In this document: piece after piece, positions 5,256-14,199 of the stretch
How the letters are laid out: each line of letters begins with the position of its first letter
Numbering within the stretch: position 1 is the stretch's first letter
Virus record (IMG/VR): IMGVR_UViG_2778261530_000007
Length of the DNA stretch: 37,462 nucleotides
Origin: a virus
Lineage: Duplodnaviria > Heunggongvirae > Uroviricota > Caudoviricetes
Strand: one strand, 5' to 3'
The notes under the pieces: model-generated
The model's input: the letters and a program-made list of their open reading frames with translations, nothing else
Told to the model about the DNA's origin: nothing
Databases searched by the model: none
Translations under genes and position numbers: made by a program

Positions 5256-6082
5256 AGAAATTCAAACTCTTTCAGATTATCCCTCTTTTTGCCGCCATCC
5301 TGCTGGTTGGTTGCGATCGTGTTGAGCCAGGTAATGTGGGCATCAAAGTCAACAAACTGGGCGACGATAAAGGCGTCGGTGAAGTGGTTGGTGTTGGCCG
5401 CTACTGGACTGGCTGGAATACCGAGGTTTACATCTTCCCGACCTTCAAACAAATGAAGACCTACGATGAGCCGTTCAGCTTCCAGATGAGTGACGGCACA
5501 ACCATCGGCTATCACATCGGTGTGGCCTACAAGGTTGATCCATCCAAAGTTACTACAGTGTTTCAGACCTACCGCAAAGGCGTGGATGACATTACCGACA
5601 CTGACCTGCGCCAGAAGATAGCCGACGCACTCAACCGACTGGCCAGCAAAATGACCACCGACAAATTTATCGACGGCGGGAAATCTGAACTACTGGATGC
5701 AGCTCTTAAAGACATTCAGGAGGAAATGACACCCATCGGTATTCAGGTAATGAGCCTCTCATATGTGGGTAAGCCGGAGTACCCGTCAACCGTTATCGAC
5801 AGCATTAATGCCAAAGTCACGGCAAACCAGAAAACCCTGCAACGCGAACAGGAAGTCAAGCAACGTGAAGCAGAAGCCAACATGTTGCGCGCAGAAGCTG
5901 CCGGACAGGCTGATGCGATTCGCACAAAAGCCCAGGCTGAAGCCGACGCTATTCGTTTACGCGGTGAAGCTCTGCGCCAGAATCCCGGCGTTATGGAGCT
6001 GGAAGCAATCAACAAATGGAACGGCACGCTGCCGCAATACATGACCAGCAATACCGCTGTTCCGTTTGTTCCGGTGAAGTAA
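5252..6082 (+). CDS. SPFH/band-7 (prohibitin/flotillin-like) domain lipoprotein
   Basis: Lipobox signal peptide ending LLVGC; SPFH-like core followed by an Ala/Glu/Gln-rich coiled-coil (EQEVKQREAEANMLRAEAAGQADAIRTKAQAEADAIRLRGEA). Confidence 0.8.
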   Translation: MKKFKLFQIIPLFAAILLVGCDRVEPGNVGIKVNKLGDDKGVGEVVGVGRYWTGWNTEVYIFPTFKQMKTYDEPFSFQMSDGTTIGYHIGVAYKVDPSKVTTVFQTYRKGVDDITDTDLRQKIADALNRLASKMTTDKFIDGGKSELLDAALKDIQEEMTPIGIQVMSLSYVGKPEYPSTVIDSINAKVTANQKTLQREQEVKQREAEANMLRAEAAGQADAIRTKAQAEADAIRLRGEALRQNPGVMELEAINKWNGTLPQYMTSNTAVPFVPVK

Positions 6083-6752: not shown

Positions 6753-7118
6753 ATGATTCTCGCCAACGACTTTCTTGAATACCTGCTCAACACAGAGCGT
6801 GATCTTGCCGCTCGCGTGCGTGATCGTTATGACATGTACCTGAAATCCCTGCCTGTACCGCAGCTCGCTGACGGAAAGATTGTTATTGATGGTCGCTACA
6901 TGATTGACAGCCACGAGGGAAATTACAGGCTTTACCGCATTGAAGGTGGCACCCCGTCCATTATTGGCATTTACCAGCGCCCATCCTCTGCAATCGTCGA
7001 TGTGATTGCCGACAGCATCCGCATCACACATCGCCATGCCGACACAGAAGACACCGTGCTGGAAATTCAGCGGCTGGCTACAGTCTGCCGCGACACCCTG
7101 TATGGCATGACGAAGTAA
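6753..7118 (+). CDS. Hypothetical protein immediately upstream of gene A (121 aa)
   Basis: ORF in operon context. Confidence 0.55.
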   Translation: MILANDFLEYLLNTERDLAARVRDRYDMYLKSLPVPQLADGKIVIDGRYMIDSHEGNYRLYRIEGGTPSIIGIYQRPSSAIVDVIADSIRITHRHADTEDTVLEIQRLATVCRDTLYGMTK

Positions 7119-7124
7119 ATCACT

Positions 7125-9947
7125 ATGACGGCAGAGTACATCAGGGACTGGCAACAACCGCGCCACGCAGTGGGGCGTGAAGGAACGGGGATCCCCGCTC
7201 CTGAATCCGCGCTTTCCTCCTGGCTGGATGCCTACCGGGCAGAGAACGAGCGCCGCCAGGAAATGGCTGATGCGGCGTTCTCCGCCACGCCGCTGGGCAA
7301 CCTGATTAATAAAAACCTGGACGCACAGGAAAAACAGGACAAAACCATCACACTGGCAGGAGACGCCAGAAAACAGGCACGCGGCGCGGTGGATGAAGCC
7401 ATGGCCTCGCTGCGCCTGCTGCCGTCCTATCTGCGCGATCCGCTTATTCGCCACCTCTCCTTCCTGCGCAAAAAACAGGAAGCCGATCGCCGGAAAGGCA
7501 AAAAGAGCTGGCAGGCGGAACGCTATGCACGCGGAACCCTGCGCAAAATATTCGAACGTCTGGATCGCACTGACGGACACTGGCTGACACCGGGTTATCG
7601 CTCCCTTGCCGGACGCGAACGCCTGGACGATTTGCTTTACCTGCCGCAGCTCAACAAACACCAGATACAGACGCTGGCCACCATGACGGCGGCGATGTTC
7701 AGCAGCACCTTCGAAAAACTCTGCGATGGCTTTGGCGCGACCGATGGCGAACTGACCATGGATGTAACGCTGAAGGCGTATCAGATGCTGGCCCGCATGG
7801 CGTTACACCTGCACATCATGCCTCCACATTATGACGCACTGACAACAGATAAAGACCGGAGGAACGAACCGGACACGGAGCTGCTGCCGGGCGCAATCCT
7901 TCGCCTGACCTGTGCGGAATGGTGGAAACGCAAACTGTGGCTGTTACGTTGCGAGTGGAGAGAAGAACAACTCCGCGCCGCCTGTCTGGTTTCCAGAAAA
8001 ACATCACCCTATCTGAGCCAGGACGCGTTAAGCGAGTTTCGCGCACAGCGCGAGAAAACACGCGATTTCCTGAAAAGTTTCATGCTGGAAAACGAAGACG
8101 GGTTCACGATTGATCTCGAGACAGTGTATTACGCGGGAGTAAGTAACCCGGTTCACCGTAAGGCAGAAATGATGGCCACCATGAAGGGGCTGGAACTTCT
8201 GGCCGAAGCCCGTGGCGACAAAGCGGTGTTTCTGACTGTCACCTGCCCGTCAAAATACCACGCCACAACAGAGAACGGTCATCCGAATCCCAGATGGAAC
8301 GGGGCCACCATGCGCGACTCCAGCGATTACCTGGTTAACACGTTTTTTGCAGCGGTCCGCAAGAAACTGAACCGCGATGGCCTGCGCTGGTATGGCATCC
8401 GCACGGTGGAGCCTCACCATGACGGCACCGTGCACTGGCATATGATGGTCTTTGCTCATCCGGAAGAAATCGACAGCATTGTGGCCATCACCCGCGATAT
8501 TGCCATTCAGGAAGACCGCCACGAGCTGGGCGATGACATAACTCCGCGTTTTAAGGCGGAGTACGTAGACGGCTCAAAAGGCACACCAACCAGCTATATC
8601 GCGACCTACATCGGAAAAAACCTGGACAGCCGCGCCGTGGATGGCATCGACCCGAAAACGGGCAAGCCACGCGTTGACCACGAAACCGGAAAATCAATGG
8701 CAGAGAGCGTGGAACGCGCCATCGGCTGGGCGCGCCTTCACCGGGTCCGCCAGTTCCAGTTCTTTGGTATCCCCTCCCGTCAGGTGTGGCGTGAACTGCG
8801 TCGCCTTGCCAGCCAGATGGCACGCAACCCGGAAGGCCCGCAACGGCTGAAGGATGACGCAATGGACTCGGTTCTTGCTGCCGCTGATGCCGGATGTTTT
8901 GCCACCTACATAGAGAAACAGGGCGGCGTACTTGTTCCACGCAAAGACTACCTGATTCGCACCGCCTACGACCTCGCAGATGAGCTGAACGATTACGGCG
9001 AACAGAGCGTACAGATTTACGGGATCTGGTCACCACTCATCGGGGAATCCTCCCGTGTGTGCACGCATCCGGATAACTGGAAGCTGGTAAGACGTAAACC
9101 AGAACCGGAAGACAACGCCCACGAAAATGGTTTTGACCTTCAGGGCGGCCCTGCCGCCCCTTGGACTCGTGGCAATAACTGTCCCCGTGTACAGGAAACG
9201 GACAACAACGGGACAGAACAGCCGGAAGAACGGCCAGCACCGTGGCCGCAGCTCCCTGACGGCGTTGAAGTGAACGAATGGATGCGCTCACTGAAACGGC
9301 ACGAACGCCGGGCGCTGATGCGTTCGCTTCGTGACAAACAGGCAAAAAACAGCAGTGATGAAATGCAGAGCTGGACACAGAGCCGCAAACAGCAGCGGCC
9401 TTTGCCTGATAACCACGAATTACTCGCTAAAGAATGGCGGGAGTCTGCTGAATCTCTCGGCCTGCATATCGGTGAACAACAGATGCAGCACCTGTTACGG
9501 GGCGGCAGTCTGTACGTTGACGGCAGCATCATTGCACCGCAGGGATTTGAAATTGTACGCAAACCGGATACCCGCCCGGACAGCCGAATCACGCAGCTCT
9601 GGCAGCGCCTGAGCCGTAATCATGGCGTAAGCAGCACGGAGATCCGCCATAACCCGGTCGCCAGCTATCTGGCACAGCTGGGGGCATCAGACCCTGAAGC
9701 CGCCGCACGCCTGGCATCCACACTTCAGCAGGACCAGAACACCATGAAAACACCCGTTACCGTGCTTTCTGACATGCTGCGCGCCATCCGCGACGCAGAG
9801 CACGCACAGAGAATCAGTGAAACCACTGAACGCGCCAGCCGCAAAGCAGACCTGCTGCGGGGTGGCCTGACCAGTGGAAACAAAAAACAGACAGAAACGG
9901 GACTCACGAATCCCGTAAATGAGCAAAAAACGTGCCGCGATATATGA
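7125..9947 (+). CDS. A: Replication initiation endonuclease (P2 gpA family, rolling-circle nickase); 940 aa with a long C-terminal extension
   Basis: HUH-type metal motif (TVHWHMMVF) and paired-tyrosine active-site motif (YIATYIGKN); position after the early genes. Confidence 0.9.
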   Translation: MTAEYIRDWQQPRHAVGREGTGIPAPESALSSWLDAYRAENERRQEMADAAFSATPLGNLINKNLDAQEKQDKTITLAGDARKQARGAVDEAMASLRLLPSYLRDPLIRHLSFLRKKQEADRRKGKKSWQAERYARGTLRKIFERLDRTDGHWLTPGYRSLAGRERLDDLLYLPQLNKHQIQTLATMTAAMFSSTFEKLCDGFGATDGELTMDVTLKAYQMLARMALHLHIMPPHYDALTTDKDRRNEPDTELLPGAILRLTCAEWWKRKLWLLRCEWREEQLRAACLVSRKTSPYLSQDALSEFRAQREKTRDFLKSFMLENEDGFTIDLETVYYAGVSNPVHRKAEMMATMKGLELLAEARGDKAVFLTVTCPSKYHATTENGHPNPRWNGATMRDSSDYLVNTFFAAVRKKLNRDGLRWYGIRTVEPHHDGTVHWHMMVFAHPEEIDSIVAITRDIAIQEDRHELGDDITPRFKAEYVDGSKGTPTSYIATYIGKNLDSRAVDGIDPKTGKPRVDHETGKSMAESVERAIGWARLHRVRQFQFFGIPSRQVWRELRRLASQMARNPEGPQRLKDDAMDSVLAAADAGCFATYIEKQGGVLVPRKDYLIRTAYDLADELNDYGEQSVQIYGIWSPLIGESSRVCTHPDNWKLVRRKPEPEDNAHENGFDLQGGPAAPWTRGNNCPRVQETDNNGTEQPEERPAPWPQLPDGVEVNEWMRSLKRHERRALMRSLRDKQAKNSSDEMQSWTQSRKQQRPLPDNHELLAKEWRESAESLGLHIGEQQMQHLLRGGSLYVDGSIIAPQGFEIVRKPDTRPDSRITQLWQRLSRNHGVSSTEIRHNPVASYLAQLGASDPEAAARLASTLQQDQNTMKTPVTVLSDMLRAIRDAEHAQRISETTERASRKADLLRGGLTSGNKKQTETGLTNPVNEQKTCRDI

Positions 9948-10023: not shown

Positions 10024-10983
10024 ATGAAAATTTGTATCGACGACGGCTCCACCAACATCAAGCTGGCATGGACTGAGAACGGCGAACGCCGCAACGCCAT
10101 CAGCCCGAACAGCTTCAAGTCGGAATGGTCTGCGCCGTTCGGTGGCACGCAGCCCGCGAACTACATGCTTGATGGCGTGCGCTATGGTTTTGATCCGGTC
10201 AGCGATCGCTTTGTCCAGACGACCGACACGCAATACCAGTACAGCGATGTGAATGTCATTGCCATTCATCACGCGCTGGTCAAATCAGGCATCACGCCAC
10301 AGGAGGTGGATGTGGTTGTCACCCTGCCACTGAGCGAGTATTTCGACACAAACGCACAGCCGGACATAGCCAACATCAACCGCAAAAAAGCGAACGTTAT
10401 GCGCCCGGTGGAGTACCAGAACGGCGAAGCATTCACTATCCGTAACGTGCGGGTTATGCCTGAATCCATTCCGGCTGGCTTTAAGGCACTGGCTGACATG
10501 AGTCCGTTTGAATCCCTGCTGATTGTGGATTTGGGCGGAACCACGCTGGATGTGGCAAAGGTTCAGGGGCAACTGGCAGGTATCAGCCAGGTGTTTTGCG
10601 ATCCACACGTAGGCGTTTCTATGATGGCCGATGCCGTACTGTCGGTGATGGCCACTAACGGTATGCGCACCAGTCACCACATCGCCAATACCATTATCGA
10701 ACATCGCCATGATGAAGCCTGGCTGCGCCAGCACATCCACAATGACGCGCATTACGCCAGCCTGATGGCGGTTATTCGTGAAAAGGAAGAAACACTGAAA
10801 CAACGCGTGATCCGCGCACTGGCGGGTTTTTCGGGTTACGGGCGGGTGATGGTTGTCGGTGGCGGGGCGGAGATTGTGGCACCCGCTATCCGCGAAGCCT
10901 GCGGAGTTAATGCGACTTTCATCGCGGACGGGGTGCCACAGTTTGCTCTGGTTAATGGGCTGTACGCAATGGACAAGGAGTAA
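10024..10983 (+). CDS. parM: ParM/StbA-family actin-like segregation ATPase
   Basis: Strong similarity to plasmid R1 ParM as recalled (ICIDDGSTNIKLAW, ISPNSFK, YQYSDVNV, VMPESIPAG, DLGGTTLDV, GGGAEI, LVNGLY). Confidence 0.88.
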   Translation: MKICIDDGSTNIKLAWTENGERRNAISPNSFKSEWSAPFGGTQPANYMLDGVRYGFDPVSDRFVQTTDTQYQYSDVNVIAIHHALVKSGITPQEVDVVVTLPLSEYFDTNAQPDIANINRKKANVMRPVEYQNGEAFTIRNVRVMPESIPAGFKALADMSPFESLLIVDLGGTTLDVAKVQGQLAGISQVFCDPHVGVSMMADAVLSVMATNGMRTSHHIANTIIEHRHDEAWLRQHIHNDAHYASLMAVIREKEETLKQRVIRALAGFSGYGRVMVVGGGAEIVAPAIREACGVNATFIADGVPQFALVNGLYAMDKE

Positions 10984-10987
10984 ACCA

Positions 10988-11299
10988 ATGACGACACCAA
11001 CCAGACGGATAAGTTTCTATCTGAAGCCCGCCGCCGTCAAGAACGAAGGTGAAGCATGCGCCTGGCTGGACAGCCTTACACCAGAAGCGCGCAAAAGCGG
11101 CCAACGCGTGGCTTTTCTGGCCGGGCTGGCACTTCTGAAAATGAATCCGGCAGAGGCTTACCGACTGGCTGCATGGGCTGATGATGAAGCGTTATCAGTG
11201 ACACAAACCAGGACAGAACGCCCCGCGTCACAGCCAGTATCAACCGCACAGATAACCAGTCAGATGGCCGGAAATATCCGGGCGTTATTTCCCGAATAA
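10988..11299 (+). CDS. parR: ParR-like partition adaptor protein
   Basis: Immediately downstream of parM with AAGGAG RBS; motifs shared with R1 ParR as recalled (RRISFYLKP vs RRTIAFKLNP; FLAGLALL vs LTAGLALY; IRALFPE vs ILRSLFPKE). Confidence 0.7.
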   Translation: MTTPTRRISFYLKPAAVKNEGEACAWLDSLTPEARKSGQRVAFLAGLALLKMNPAEAYRLAAWADDEALSVTQTRTERPASQPVSTAQITSQMAGNIRALFPE

Positions 11300-11304
11300 C
11301 ACAA

Positions 11305-11328
11305 CATCAGGGCGCATCCGCCCTGATG
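11305..11328 (+). terminator. Perfect hairpin (10-bp stem CATCAGGGCG / CGCCCTGATG, 4-nt loop) between parR and the ZBD gene; terminator, attenuator or protein-binding palindrome
   Basis: Inverted repeat read from the sequence. Confidence 0.4.
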
Positions 11329-11362
11329 ACTTTAACCCGGGAACATAAACAAGGGGGACACA

Positions 11363-11698
11363 ATGCAACGCATTGACAGAGAAAAAGCGCAGCGACTGAT
11401 TGAGCGGATGGAAGCGCTGGCGAAAGAAGAAAATGTCAACATCCAAAAAATAGCTGAATGTGGCCAGATAGTTCTTCGTCGTGAAAAAGACCTCAAACAA
11501 CTGATGTCTGGCGAAACCAGCAAAACATGGACTTCAGGTGAGGAGACGATTTATTGCAGCTTCTGCAATAAATCCCAGTACGAAGTCACAAAGGTGATTG
11601 CCGGACCGTCTGTTTACATCTGCAATGAGTGCGTTGATTTGTGCAATGAAGTTATCAGGAGAGAAGTGACAGACCATGAAGAAAAAACGCATGAATGA
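11363..11698 (+). CDS. Small protein with a C-terminal ClpX-type C4 zinc-binding domain (ZBD) and a novel N-terminal helical region; lacks the AAA+ module
   Basis: C-terminus [39 protein letters not shown] closely matches the ClpX N-terminal zinc finger as recalled ([39 protein letters not shown]). Confidence 0.8.
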
Positions 11699-11864
11699 CG
11701 AATTTGACGGCTTTTAATTTTATCGGGGCGCACTGTCGCCCTGCATGGAGAAAAACAATAAAAAAGATGAATAACTGCTCATGTCAGACGCGCTGCGGGC
11801 AAGTCTGGCACCCTGCCCTGTCTCCGCAAAGGCTGTTGTCTTAACACGACAGAGTATGCCAGCA

Positions 11865-12272
11865 TTAAATATAATCTTCTTCGTAGTCGCTGATTAATTC
11901 ATTGCCATAATCAGACAGCAATTTCAAAGCAAAGGTAACTTCCTCAAGGGTAGCTATCCCCATTGCTGAAAACACCGTTAATTTAACCAGCAGCAGGGAG
12001 TTTGAAAGTTCGGAAGAGTTCATCATTAAAAATATTGATGCAGCCTGAAAAGCTGTGCGTTTATTCCCATCATGAAAGGCATGAGCCTTGGCTATACCAA
12101 TCAAATACATAGCAGCCAGAGCATGAATATCATCAACCCCTTCATAGTAGTGTAGTGTCCTGACGCGATTTAAAGCACCTTCAAGTAGCCCGTCATTGGC
12201 ATTTCCGCTCTGGGGTAAAGTTTCAGCATGGATACGTTCTACTTGTTCTTTTGACAAAAACACTATGTCCAT
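11865..12272 (-). CDS. doc: Doc (death-on-curing) Fic-fold toxin
   Basis: Fic/Doc signature HAFHDGNKRTA; start overlaps the stop of the upstream antitoxin gene (TGATG). Confidence 0.85.
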   Translation of the reverse strand: MDIVFLSKEQVERIHAETLPQSGNANDGLLEGALNRVRTLHYYEGVDDIHALAAMYLIGIAKAHAFHDGNKRTAFQAASIFLMMNSSELSNSLLLVKLTVFSAMGIATLEEVTFALKLLSDYGNELISDYEEDYI

Positions 12273-12628
12273 CAGTTATCCTCAAGCTTTTTAATGATAT
12301 CCGCATGTTTTTCTCTTGTACGCTTCATTGCATCTTCAAAAGACAATCCTTTTTTTCTCTGTGCGACAAGAGCTGGATGACGTTTTTCCAGATCTCTCAC
12401 TGCATTTATTAAGAGTGGTTGCTTCATTTTGTTTATTTGATCCCGCAGTTTTTTGGTTTTGCCAAGGACAGCCCGTATTTCAGGACTAAGATCAGAACCA
12501 GCAAGAACAACATCCTTCCCTCCCTGCGCCGTGATAACGACACTGCCACCGGAAGAAAGGTAATCCAGAATTTCACTCAGGTTCTCACGAAATTCATCAT
12601 CAGTTACAGTTTTCATATTCATTTCCAT
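12272..12628 (-). CDS. phd: Putative Phd/YefM-type antitoxin with C-terminal extension, cognate to Doc
   Basis: Upstream of and translationally coupled to doc; N-terminal region resembles the Phd/YefM fold pattern (EFRENLSEILDYLSSGGSVVITAQGGKDVVL). Confidence 0.6.
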   Translation of the reverse strand: MEMNMKTVTDDEFRENLSEILDYLSSGGSVVITAQGGKDVVLAGSDLSPEIRAVLGKTKKLRDQINKMKQPLLINAVRDLEKRHPALVAQRKKGLSFEDAMKRTREKHADIIKKLEDN

Positions 12629-12702
12629 TATGCACGCCCATAACGTAAGTATAACGGCTTGTTGGGCAGTAATAACACCGCCATATTTTCATTTTATACA
12701 CC

Positions 12703-12799
12703 GCACAATAGTGCACAAATTTGCACAATTTTTTTGAACAACTTTTTACCCTTCCGGCCCGCGTGGCGACTGGATCCGTCAAGGATCCGTGCGTGCACA
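12703..12799. repeat. Direct repeats of TGCACAA at 10-bp phasing (12703..12728) with a further copy at 12793..12799, plus GGATCCGT-N3-GGATCCGT (12772..12790), in the non-coding region between phd and Q
   Basis: Read directly from the sequence; function unknown (operator, packaging or centromere-like site). Confidence 0.35.
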
Positions 12800-13103
12800 A
12801 AAAAACGCGCTTTTTCTGCGCGCAGGTGACGGGGGAACAGCCCGCGTTTCAGGGGGTAAATAGCATCCCCTGAACGATGTCGCAGCGACACAACAGAATG
12901 GCTGTATTTCTCACGCTGAGCGTGAAAAAGACGTGAGGGCTTTTGATTTGATGGGGTGAAAGGTAAGGCCGTCAAAATCGCACTGAGACGGCGAGAACAT
13001 GCAGTCAACGCGGTGGGATTGCGTAAGAGTCTGACTGTCGATGATGGCAATAAGCAGGAAAGCGTCGTGAAATTATCTGATTGATACAGGAGCTGGAGAG
13101 TCG

Positions 13104-13126
13104 GGGCATAAATTTTTTATGCCCCG
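13104..13126. other. Perfect 10-bp-stem hairpin GGGGCATAAA-TTT-TTTATGCCCC just downstream of Q on the minus strand
   Basis: Inverted repeat read from the sequence; may be the Q/P operon terminator or part of the packaging region. Confidence 0.35.
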
Positions 13127-13152
13127 GCGAAGCAGCAGACAAGCGAAGCGCG

Positions 13153-14199
13153 TCAGGATGTGGGCTGGGTGTCTAACAGTGCGTAAGGGTTAAAGCGGAT
13201 CACCTCTTCGCCAAGCCAGTCATTGATGTGCTTTATGGCCTCCATGACAGGCATCAGCTCGTTAATTGCGTAAACCCGCGCGGCCTTCTCCACATCGCCA
13301 AACGCACTTTTTTCGCCCGGCATCGCCCCCATCAGTTGCGGCGGAACGCGGTGCGCAGCCAGCACATCATCACGGGATGCCGCCTTAACATTCATGAACT
13401 CATCCTTTGCGGTGATCTGCTGGAACGGCAAAATTTGCACCCCCTCTTTGCCCCCGTTGGGCGCATGGATGAGCACGTTTTTAAACGCACCACCACCACG
13501 CGCACCCTGTAACGTTTCTTTCAGGGAGTCCATGCTTTCGCGGTTTACCTGCGCTGCACCGATGTAGATGATGCACCCGGCGTGGGATCCATTGTCGTAA
13601 TACAGTTTTCTGAACATGTCCGCCGAATGAGACAGGCTGGCCGAGAGTAATGCGCCAAGATATTCCGGCATGCCGTAAATTTCCTGGTTAATGTCCGGAT
13701 TCATCAGGTGGCACACTTTGCCAGGGCGAAACTGAAACGCGTCCTTGCCATCCTGCACATACCACCATGATTCAAGATCGCTTCCGCGTCGCATGTATTT
13801 CGCCAGTGCGTGCCGTAATTTAAGTGGTTCGCCGAGCATATTGCTCCGAAGCTCAAGGAATGCGTTACCGAACACAAACCAGTCCAGCGCCAGCGCCGAG
13901 AAATCCTGCCGGGAAAGCAGCGGGTGCGGGATGTAGCAACCGAGCAATACATTGCGCTTAAAGTAAAGCGCAGACTGATGCCAGGACGTTTGCCGGGCAG
14001 CTCTTGCCAGACCGTACCAGTCCACCGGGGTTTCATACCACCGCCCGTTATCAGCACAGTACATATTGTCCAGCAGGTCATGCCCGGTCAGGCGATAAGG
14101 ACCATCAAATGTGAATGCACTGAGCGATGATTCTTTCCTGAGCGCATCAGCGAGATCAATGCGTGAACTCATGCGCACTTTTTTATTTTTTCTGCTCAT
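13153..14199 (-). CDS. Q: Portal protein (P2 gpQ)
   Basis: Position and length match P2 Q; coupled to the terminase gene (stop/start overlap at 14199). Confidence 0.9.
   Translation of the reverse strand: MSRKNKKVRMSSRIDLADALRKESSLSAFTFDGPYRLTGHDLLDNMYCADNGRWYETPVDWYGLARAARQTSWHQSALYFKRNVLLGCYIPHPLLSRQDFSALALDWFVFGNAFLELRSNMLGEPLKLRHALAKYMRRGSDLESWWYVQDGKDAFQFRPGKVCHLMNPDINQEIYGMPEYLGALLSASLSHSADMFRKLYYDNGSHAGCIIYIGAAQVNRESMDSLKETLQGARGGGAFKNVLIHAPNGGKEGVQILPFQQITAKDEFMNVKAASRDDVLAAHRVPPQLMGAMPGEKSAFGDVEKAARVYAINELMPVMEAIKHINDWLGEEVIRFNPYALLDTQPTS

Follow-up and report, generated by a model that had tools for sequence, protein, structure and literature searches.

A Phd/Doc-type toxin–antitoxin cassette in the gpA–gpQ hotspot of a P88-like prophage

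Does a toxin–antitoxin (TA) gene pair that lies beside partition genes and a ClpX zinc-finger gene form one maintenance unit with them, or is it cargo that comes and goes on its own? The question is raised by the IMG/VR virus record IMGVR_UViG_2778261530_000007 (Caudoviricetes), a stretch of 37,462 nucleotides (nt), hereafter the window, which is a P88-like (P2-family) prophage with two overlapping minus-strand genes at 11865-12628. A first-pass annotation described these genes as a Phd/Doc pair with an unusually long antitoxin and suggested that they are regulated together with the neighbouring ParM/ParR (ParMR) pair and a gene for a ClpX zinc-binding-domain (ZBD) protein. Our analysis identifies the genes as a Phd/Doc module with high confidence, and very probably as independent, exchangeable cargo of the variable segment between the replication gene A (product gpA) and the portal gene Q (product gpQ). 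We consider it probable that the whole is a functional type II TA cassette of the Phd/Doc type, carried as exchangeable cargo, whose likeliest role is to let the prophage exclude competing phages or abort their infection; taken by itself, a role in defence is a tentative assignment.

The toxin, the antitoxin and their operon

The pair and its control region occupy the following positions.

11865-12272, minus strand: doc, encoding a Doc-family (Fic-fold) toxin of 135 aa (Pfam Fic, TIGR01550, match to P1 Doc, AlphaFold (AF2) model)
12272-12616, minus strand: antitoxin gene, 114 aa from the conserved start; the open reading frame (ORF) extends to 12628, giving 118 aa (RefSeq start, partial PhdYeFM match, AF2 model, Foldseek)
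12270-12274, minus strand: TGATG stop/start overlap of the antitoxin gene and doc (sequence)
12617-12702, minus strand: cassette-borne 5' region (blocks conserved across genera)

The identity of the pair is borne out by its ORFs, by the profile matches and fold of Doc and by the fold of the antitoxin N-domain. Doc scored 44.2 bits against Pfam PF02661 Fic (curated cut-off 24; E=3.5e-11) and 53.6 bits against NCBIfam TIGR01550 DOC_P1 (curated cut-off 38.65; E=2.3e-14), and it matched P1 Doc chains in a sequence search (E=6e-13). Its AlphaFold model (pLDDT 86, pTM 0.80), compared as a model rather than as a solved structure, superimposed on P1 Doc 3dd7_C with TM scores of 0.81/0.89 and a root-mean-square deviation (rmsd) of 1.6 Å over 120 columns. 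The Fic-type signature reported earlier, HAFHDGNKRTA, is present at residues 64-74 and conforms to the Doc-type active-site motif H-x-F-x-[DN]-[AG]-N-K-R; H64, D68, N70, K71 and R72 are invariant across 37 homologues. The Doc-type motif carries a Lys in place of the second Gly of AMPylating Fic proteins, and this Lys marks the toxin as one of the kinase type. With about 30% identity to P1 Doc and the conserved motif, Doc is predicted to be an EF-Tu kinase. Compared with P1 Doc, the protein has about 11 extra residues in a conserved acidic, Tyr-rich tail (residues 120-135; window 11865-11915; LSDYGNELISDYEEDYI), which is modelled as a low-confidence helix (pLDDT 50-65); S120, Y122 and Y134 are nearly invariant in the wider Doc clade, and the ratio of non-synonymous to synonymous substitution rates (dN/dS) of the tail is ~0.05.

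The antitoxin is indeed longer than the 73-aa P1 Phd, although its length is 114 rather than the 118 residues first given. All homologues conserve the third ATG (MKTVTD, 12616) as the start, with a Shine-Dalgarno sequence GGAAA ahead of it at 12626-12622, whereas the two upstream ATGs are not conserved; RefSeq WP_001561011, named as Phd/YefM family, likewise has 114 aa. The protein consists of a Phd/YefM-type N-domain (residues 1-42), a helical spacer (about 45-90) and a conserved C-terminal helix (91-114; LSFEDAMKRTREKHADIIKKLEDN). The AF2 model, built from 15 homologues (pLDDT 70 overall and ~82 in the N-domain), places strands at 2-5, 25-29 and 35-39 and helices at 6-21, 45-63, 66-79, 81-84 and 93-113, with an unstructured stretch between the short helix 81-84 and the C-terminal helix. 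In this model the N-domain adopts the beta-alpha-beta-beta DNA-binding/dimerisation fold: the top Foldseek matches were all Phd/YefM, and the P1 Phd DNA-binding domain 4zlx_A aligned with an rmsd of 1.0 Å over 39 columns (probability 1.00). By sequence, the antitoxin fell just below the cut-off of Pfam PF02604 PhdYeFM (29.2 bits against 29.8; residues 5-42 only) and below that of TIGR01552 (16.6 bits against 20.8), and a search of the PDB returned marginal N-terminal Phd matches alone (E ~1); some close homologues have a precomputed PF02604 match.

We compared 12 distinct intact loci, from Escherichia, Enterobacter, Klebsiella, Citrobacter, Serratia, Edwardsiella and metagenomes. Across them dN/dS is ~0.035 for Doc and ~0.15 for the whole antitoxin (values that are rough, as dS is near saturation), and these low ratios in both genes put the pair far beyond chance: purifying selection acts on doc and the antitoxin gene alike, and both are real. 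The last base of the antitoxin stop codon TGA (12274-12272) is the first base of the doc start codon ATG (12272-12270), and this overlap, a 135-aa Doc and an antitoxin of 111-114 aa recur in all 11 other loci. The two genes, described in the first-pass annotation as translationally coupled, thus overlap and are probably coupled.

Conservation is uneven along the antitoxin. Mean pairwise identity among the 12 loci is 69% in residues 1-44, 48% in residues 45-90 and 91% in residues 91-114, with dN/dS (again rough) of 0.16, 0.27 and 0.05, respectively. The C-terminal helix therefore tracks Doc (87% identity), whereas the spacer does not. No match to the spacer was found among the Pfam, NCBIfam and PADLOC models. 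A search with the antitoxin profile of 1.84 billion representative proteins recovered only 60 relatives, of 90-214 aa, which are alike at both ends and differ widely in the length and composition of their spacers. Since the spacer varies in both sequence and length and matches no model, it is not a conserved extra domain. The earlier suggestion that the antitoxin might carry one is thus right as to the extra length, which is real and amounts to a spacer of about 45 residues, and wrong as to a domain; what lengthens the protein is a helical spacer under loose constraint.

The conserved helix, in turn, is likely to be the part that neutralises Doc, through a contact that we infer. A second, larger Doc clade (54-66% identity), represented in a Klebsiella siphovirus-type prophage and an Enterobacter chromosome, has Phd-like antitoxin partners of 109-129 aa (lengths depend on the gene call) whose middle regions are unrelated to that of the window antitoxin; these antitoxins keep the C-terminal motif SF[EN]DA[LM]K.T..KHA.IIK.LED[NK]. 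It is experimentally established for P1, Salmonella and PanA-type antitoxins that the C-terminal Phd helix is a sufficient and modular neutraliser (PMC9207808; PMC10440598). The 'Phd-C' modular antitoxins (NetFlax; Ernits et al., 2023; PMC10440598) resemble the window antitoxin in that a linker joins a DNA-binding or accessory N-domain to a short helix at the C terminus, which in Phd-C antitoxins is enough by itself to neutralise Doc, and in both families the C-terminal motif is joined to spacers of very different length. However, the Phd-C N-domain is Panacea rather than Phd/YefM, and neutralisation by residues 91-114 is here a prediction. By our own pattern matching, a putative aromatic 'gatekeeper', F93, and L111 near the end of the window antitoxin have a spacing similar to that of F56 and L70 in the Salmonella Phd peptide (PMC9207808). 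Residues 52-73 of P1 Phd, in contrast, have no recognisable sequence similarity to the window motif, which is about four residues longer. Among longer Doc homologues we found no natural antitoxin–Doc fusion; these proteins are longer through a duplication or an extension at the C terminus.

Upstream of the antitoxin gene, two sequence blocks, GTGTTATTAyTGC and CGTTATACTTACGyTATGG, recur across genera and contain a candidate promoter with a weak -35 TTATTA (12675-12670), a spacing of 16 nt and a good -10 TATACT (12653-12648). A consensus scan of the minus strand in this region called no promoter, owing to the weakness of the -35. Three GTTAT repeats in phase may serve as operator half-sites, and autoregulation of the operon by the antitoxin may be expected. 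In the 166-bp spacer between doc and the ZBD gene, neither a terminator nor significant structure (z-score 0.04) was found.

An exchangeable cassette and its neighbours

The surroundings of the pair are as follows.

11696-12702, unstranded: cassette swapped relative to phage P88 (blastn junctions, composition)
7125-9947, plus strand: replication gene A, left boundary of the hotspot (Pfam Phage_GPA 3e-131)
13153-14199, minus strand: portal gene Q, right boundary of the hotspot (hotspot definition in PMC9122126)
10024-11299, plus strand: ParM (10024-10983) and ParR/StbB (10988-11299), backbone neighbours (Pfam StbA_N/ParM, Plasmid_stab_B)
11363-11698, plus strand: stand-alone ClpX ZBD protein of 111 aa, backbone neighbour (Pfam zf-C4_ClpX 3.1e-17)

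In this region blastn found homology to P88 at 11300-11695 and 12703-13150 only; as homology stops at 11695 and resumes at 12703, the cassette spans 11696-12702 (~1 kb). It is AT-rich (GC content 0.39-0.46 versus 0.52-0.59 in the flanks), and its flanks are those of P88 (Xuanwuvirus, Peduoviridae), in which gpA is followed by ParM, ParR, ClpX-ZBD, other small ORFs, the portal gene and the terminase gene. The cos region is placed between gene Q and the cassette. The pair thus lies between gene A and gene Q, where content is variable among otherwise collinear P2-like phages. This cos-proximal segment is known as a variable hotspot rich in validated, exchangeable anti-phage cargo (PMC9122126; PMC9519451), and Table S5A of Rousset et al. 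(2022; PMC9122126) contains this exact arrangement, with WP_001561011. The module is therefore already annotated in RefSeq and already part of a published hotspot catalogue. Doc, Phd, ClpX and ParM all go unmentioned in the main text of a 2026 Nucleic Acids Research paper on the defence hotspots of P2 and P4.

A census of 5426 complete E. coli genomes found 1142 that have the portal-proximal flank at least, and 20 that carry the cassette, at ≥99.9% identity and with all 23 copies chromosomal. Other occupants of the same slot in E. coli are ead/Ea22-like, DUF7446 and XF1762 genes. Positions 11300-13150 of the window are 100% identical to E. coli BCE049, in which the gene layout differs elsewhere.

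The first-pass annotation was correct that doc is convergent on the ClpX-ZBD gene, at a distance of 166 bp, and from this proximity came the proposal that Phd/Doc, ParMR and ClpX-ZBD form one co-regulated unit in which the ZBD protein would tune ClpXP-dependent turnover of the antitoxin. In favour of the proposal are the adjacency of the genes, the presence of the ZBD gene next to the cassette in 18 of the 20 E. coli copies and again in two other loci (L019 and L024), and the established fact that P1 Phd is a ClpXP substrate and is degraded by that protease. Nevertheless, ParM, ParR and ZBD are all present in P88, which has no cassette, and the P88 junctions, which bound the cassette at 11696 and 12702, make these three genes flanking backbone. 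Among the 112 of 5426 complete E. coli genomes that carry the ZBD gene, 18 have the cassette and 94 do not. Conversely, two E. coli genomes encode identical Phd/Doc proteins although ParM is truncated and ParR and ZBD are gone, and nine of the 12 distinct intact loci keep related Phd/Doc genes in the absence of both ParMR and ZBD; of the other three, L021 has ParMR alone, and L019 and L024 have ZBD alone. The three ZBD-adjacent loci belong to a single antitoxin sub-clade (86% and 64-71% identity) and so count as one historical association. Phd/Doc and ZBD/ParMR also lie on opposite strands with separate upstream regions, and our literature search on stand-alone phage ClpX-ZBD proteins found nothing relevant. 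Given these co-occurrence counts, strands and upstream regions, the co-regulated unit is unsupported and in our judgement extremely unlikely; even a more limited role, in which the ZBD protein modulates the module where both are present through its effect on ClpXP substrates, is very unlikely at best.

The alternative, that the pair is independent cargo of the hotspot, is also consistent with its relatives in other genera. In all 12 distinct loci the pair is situated between the gpA and gpQ genes of a P2-like prophage, the gpA proteins being 30-36% identical to the window gpA, and every relative that could be placed, Symbiopectobacterium included, lies in this hotspot. No antitoxin match was found by tblastn in 50,697 deposited phage genomes. 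A rival reading is that the cassette is a purely selfish hitch-hiker that benefits neither phage nor host, and persists because TA cassettes are hard to lose and spread by recombination between P2-like phages; in E. coli the cassette occurs in few genomes (20 of 5426) and is almost clonal, and no phenotype is known for it. We regard this as very unlikely. Strong purifying selection acts on both genes across genera, in no fewer than 12 lineages the cassette is confined to one hotspot, which points to selection there, and it decays in Symbiopectobacterium, where selection is presumably relaxed.

Several relatives deserve mention in their own right. In Symbiopectobacterium, an insect symbiont lineage, one locus has a frameshifted antitoxin gene (L007, 8001-8341), and two others (L008 and L009, 8001-8081) retain the last 27 antitoxin codons with Doc undetected, still between the portal gene and gpA. 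In a metagenomic P2-like locus (L021, 5972-8743) the cassette is inverted and co-directional with gpA-ParM-ParR, and it has a different upstream region with an ATTACGT...ACGTAAT palindrome; this arrangement indicates that the cassette can move without its usual upstream region. In Serratia (L017, 8875-9515), a HicA/HicB pair directly follows the Phd/Doc cassette, which places two TA modules side by side.

Stabilisation, exclusion and the proposed mechanism

For P1, phd-doc is an established precedent for addiction, and the first-pass annotation drew the analogy with that plasmid system. By this account, the module would kill or arrest cells that lose the prophage, the hotspot segment, or a transient plasmid-state genome supported by ParMR. 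The cassette is very well conserved, and ParMR lies in the same hotspot; Rousset et al. noted that roughly one in four P2-like phages has a partition system, and speculated on plasmid maintenance (PMC9122126). However, P1 is a plasmid prophage and the window module is on an integrated P2-like prophage, and all 23 E. coli copies of the cassette are chromosomal. ParMR is absent from nine of 12 lineages, and tblastn of the antitoxin against 72,556 plasmids (PLSDB) gave a single distant match (34.5% identity). The chromosomal copies and the near-absence from plasmids make P1-style addiction a poor fit. Moreover, cargo in the hotspot is readily swapped, which means that the cassette is no barrier to being replaced itself. 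We therefore consider stabilisation unlikely as the main function. The ParM/ParR (StbA/StbB) pair itself belongs to a P2-like prophage that is integrated in the chromosome at all 23 places where the neighbouring cassette occurs and at 1319 of the 1320 places where the flank occurs.

Instead, the position and orientation of the cassette in the hotspot favour a lysogenic-conversion or phage-exclusion function. A close parallel is the old-tin operon of P2, which occupies the same slot in the same orientation, with its promoter next to cos and directed towards gene A, and has the same triple-repeat backbone element upstream; its transcript starts ~150 bp from cos. The proteins, however, are unrelated: OLD is a nuclease and Tin a poison of single-stranded-DNA-binding protein, whereas the window cassette is predicted to encode a TA kinase module. 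The gpA–gpQ hotspot is known to hold exchangeable anti-phage cargo (Rousset et al., 2022; Vassallo et al., 2022), a role that the window cassette may share. A Fic-fold toxin is known to mediate abortive infection in the case of SoFic (PMC12249575). SoFic resembles the window toxin, as predicted here, in being a Fic-fold toxin restrained by a small partner; it differs in being an AMPylating Fic protein, the window toxin having the Doc-type Lys, and the SoFic model in PADLOC was not matched by the window toxin. Also among the closest known systems are the Phd/Doc systems of P1 and Salmonella Typhimurium, which share the Doc fold, the motif H-x-F-x-D-[AG]-N-K-R, an upstream overlapping antitoxin gene and, judging from the model, the Phd/YefM N-terminal DNA-binding fold.

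Taking these parallels together with the architecture of the two proteins, we propose the following mechanism. The cassette would be transcribed, probably from its own promoter next to cos, towards the early operon, in the manner of P2 old-tin. The antitoxin would dimerise and bind its operator through the Phd/YefM N-domain and would block Doc through the near-invariant C-terminal helix 91-114, the helical spacer joining the two and accounting for the extra length. If the supply of labile antitoxin ceased, Doc would be set free, phosphorylate EF-Tu at Thr382/383 and bring translation to a halt. The most likely result would be that competing phages are excluded or their infections aborted, perhaps with the locus being stabilised as well. 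The mechanism would depend on neither ParMR nor the ClpX-ZBD protein, and would not amount to P1-style plasmid addiction.

Several points weigh against an exclusion function. PADLOC matched no named defence system in the cassette; the antitoxin had no match, and Doc gave weak Fic-domain matches to the candidate families PDC-S23, PDC-M59B and PDC-S05 (best E=7e-6). We found no experiments on this module or its close relatives in the literature, and the supplementary tables in which Rousset et al. list the systems they tested do not contain the term 'Fic' (PMC9122126). Hotspots also hold cargo unrelated to defence, such as partition systems and cytolethal distending toxin (PMC9122126). In addition, the kinase activity and the EF-Tu target are predicted from about 30% identity to P1 Doc and the motif, the promoter and operator are proposed from their conservation, and the contact of the C-terminal helix with Doc is likewise deduced.

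A more specific version of the exclusion hypothesis, which we regard as rather unlikely, is that the cassette is a hotspot-dedicated Doc-kinase abortive-infection system in which the fast-evolving antitoxin spacer (45-90) serves as phage sensor or target, by acting as a degron or by binding a trigger, and the Doc thus freed would phosphorylate EF-Tu and abort the infection. If it is true, then, to our knowledge and in the literature searched, spacer-sensing abortive infection by Doc would be the first demonstrated anti-phage role of a Phd/Doc module.

Flanking elements and significance

One further element abuts the cassette on its cos-proximal side.

12703-12732, minus strand: three TTGTGC(A) repeats about 10 bp apart, a backbone element (common to P88 and the region upstream of the P2 old-tin start)

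The triple repeat is present in P88 (L001, 5773-5802) and in every locus of another genus save the inverted L021; it was also noted in L031 (about 6953-6978). A diverged version (ATGCA, three copies) lies upstream of the annotated P2 old-tin transcript starts, and by our reading the third copy overlaps a -35-like TTGAAT. We considered the triple repeat as the Phd operator and rejected it, for it is backbone sequence common to P88 and P2. It may be a conserved promoter or regulatory element for any inserted cargo, or may mark a recombination boundary. On the minus strand of P88 (L001, about 5735-5770), a GC-rich hairpin and T run (GCCCTGGAAGAGGGCGTTTT) directly follow the triple repeat and resemble a terminator, at the place where other phages hold minus-strand cargo. 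Between the cassette and the portal gene, a GC-rich stretch of the window contains two copies of the direct repeat GGATCCGT 11 bp apart (12772-12790), which are probably part of the cos region. In the ZBD protein (PHROG 6797, of unknown function), the ZBD occupies residues 64-99 and is preceded by an N-terminal region of ~60 aa; one possibility is that it acts as a decoy or competitor for ZBD-dependent ClpX substrates or adaptors.

In summary, neither the partition genes nor the ClpX zinc-finger protein is functionally linked to the Phd/Doc pair of this prophage, which corrects an attractive story, and the cassette is one of many interchangeable cargoes in an already catalogued hotspot. The antitoxin, whose architecture is mildly unusual but explicable, defines a small enterobacterial sub-family of Phd-like proteins with a DNA-binding domain, a hypervariable spacer and a conserved, putatively Doc-binding helix, and one clade of this family appears to be confined to the P2-family hotspot across several genera. 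The cassette thus offers a cheap and well-defined candidate test case for a part played by Doc kinases in phage exclusion.

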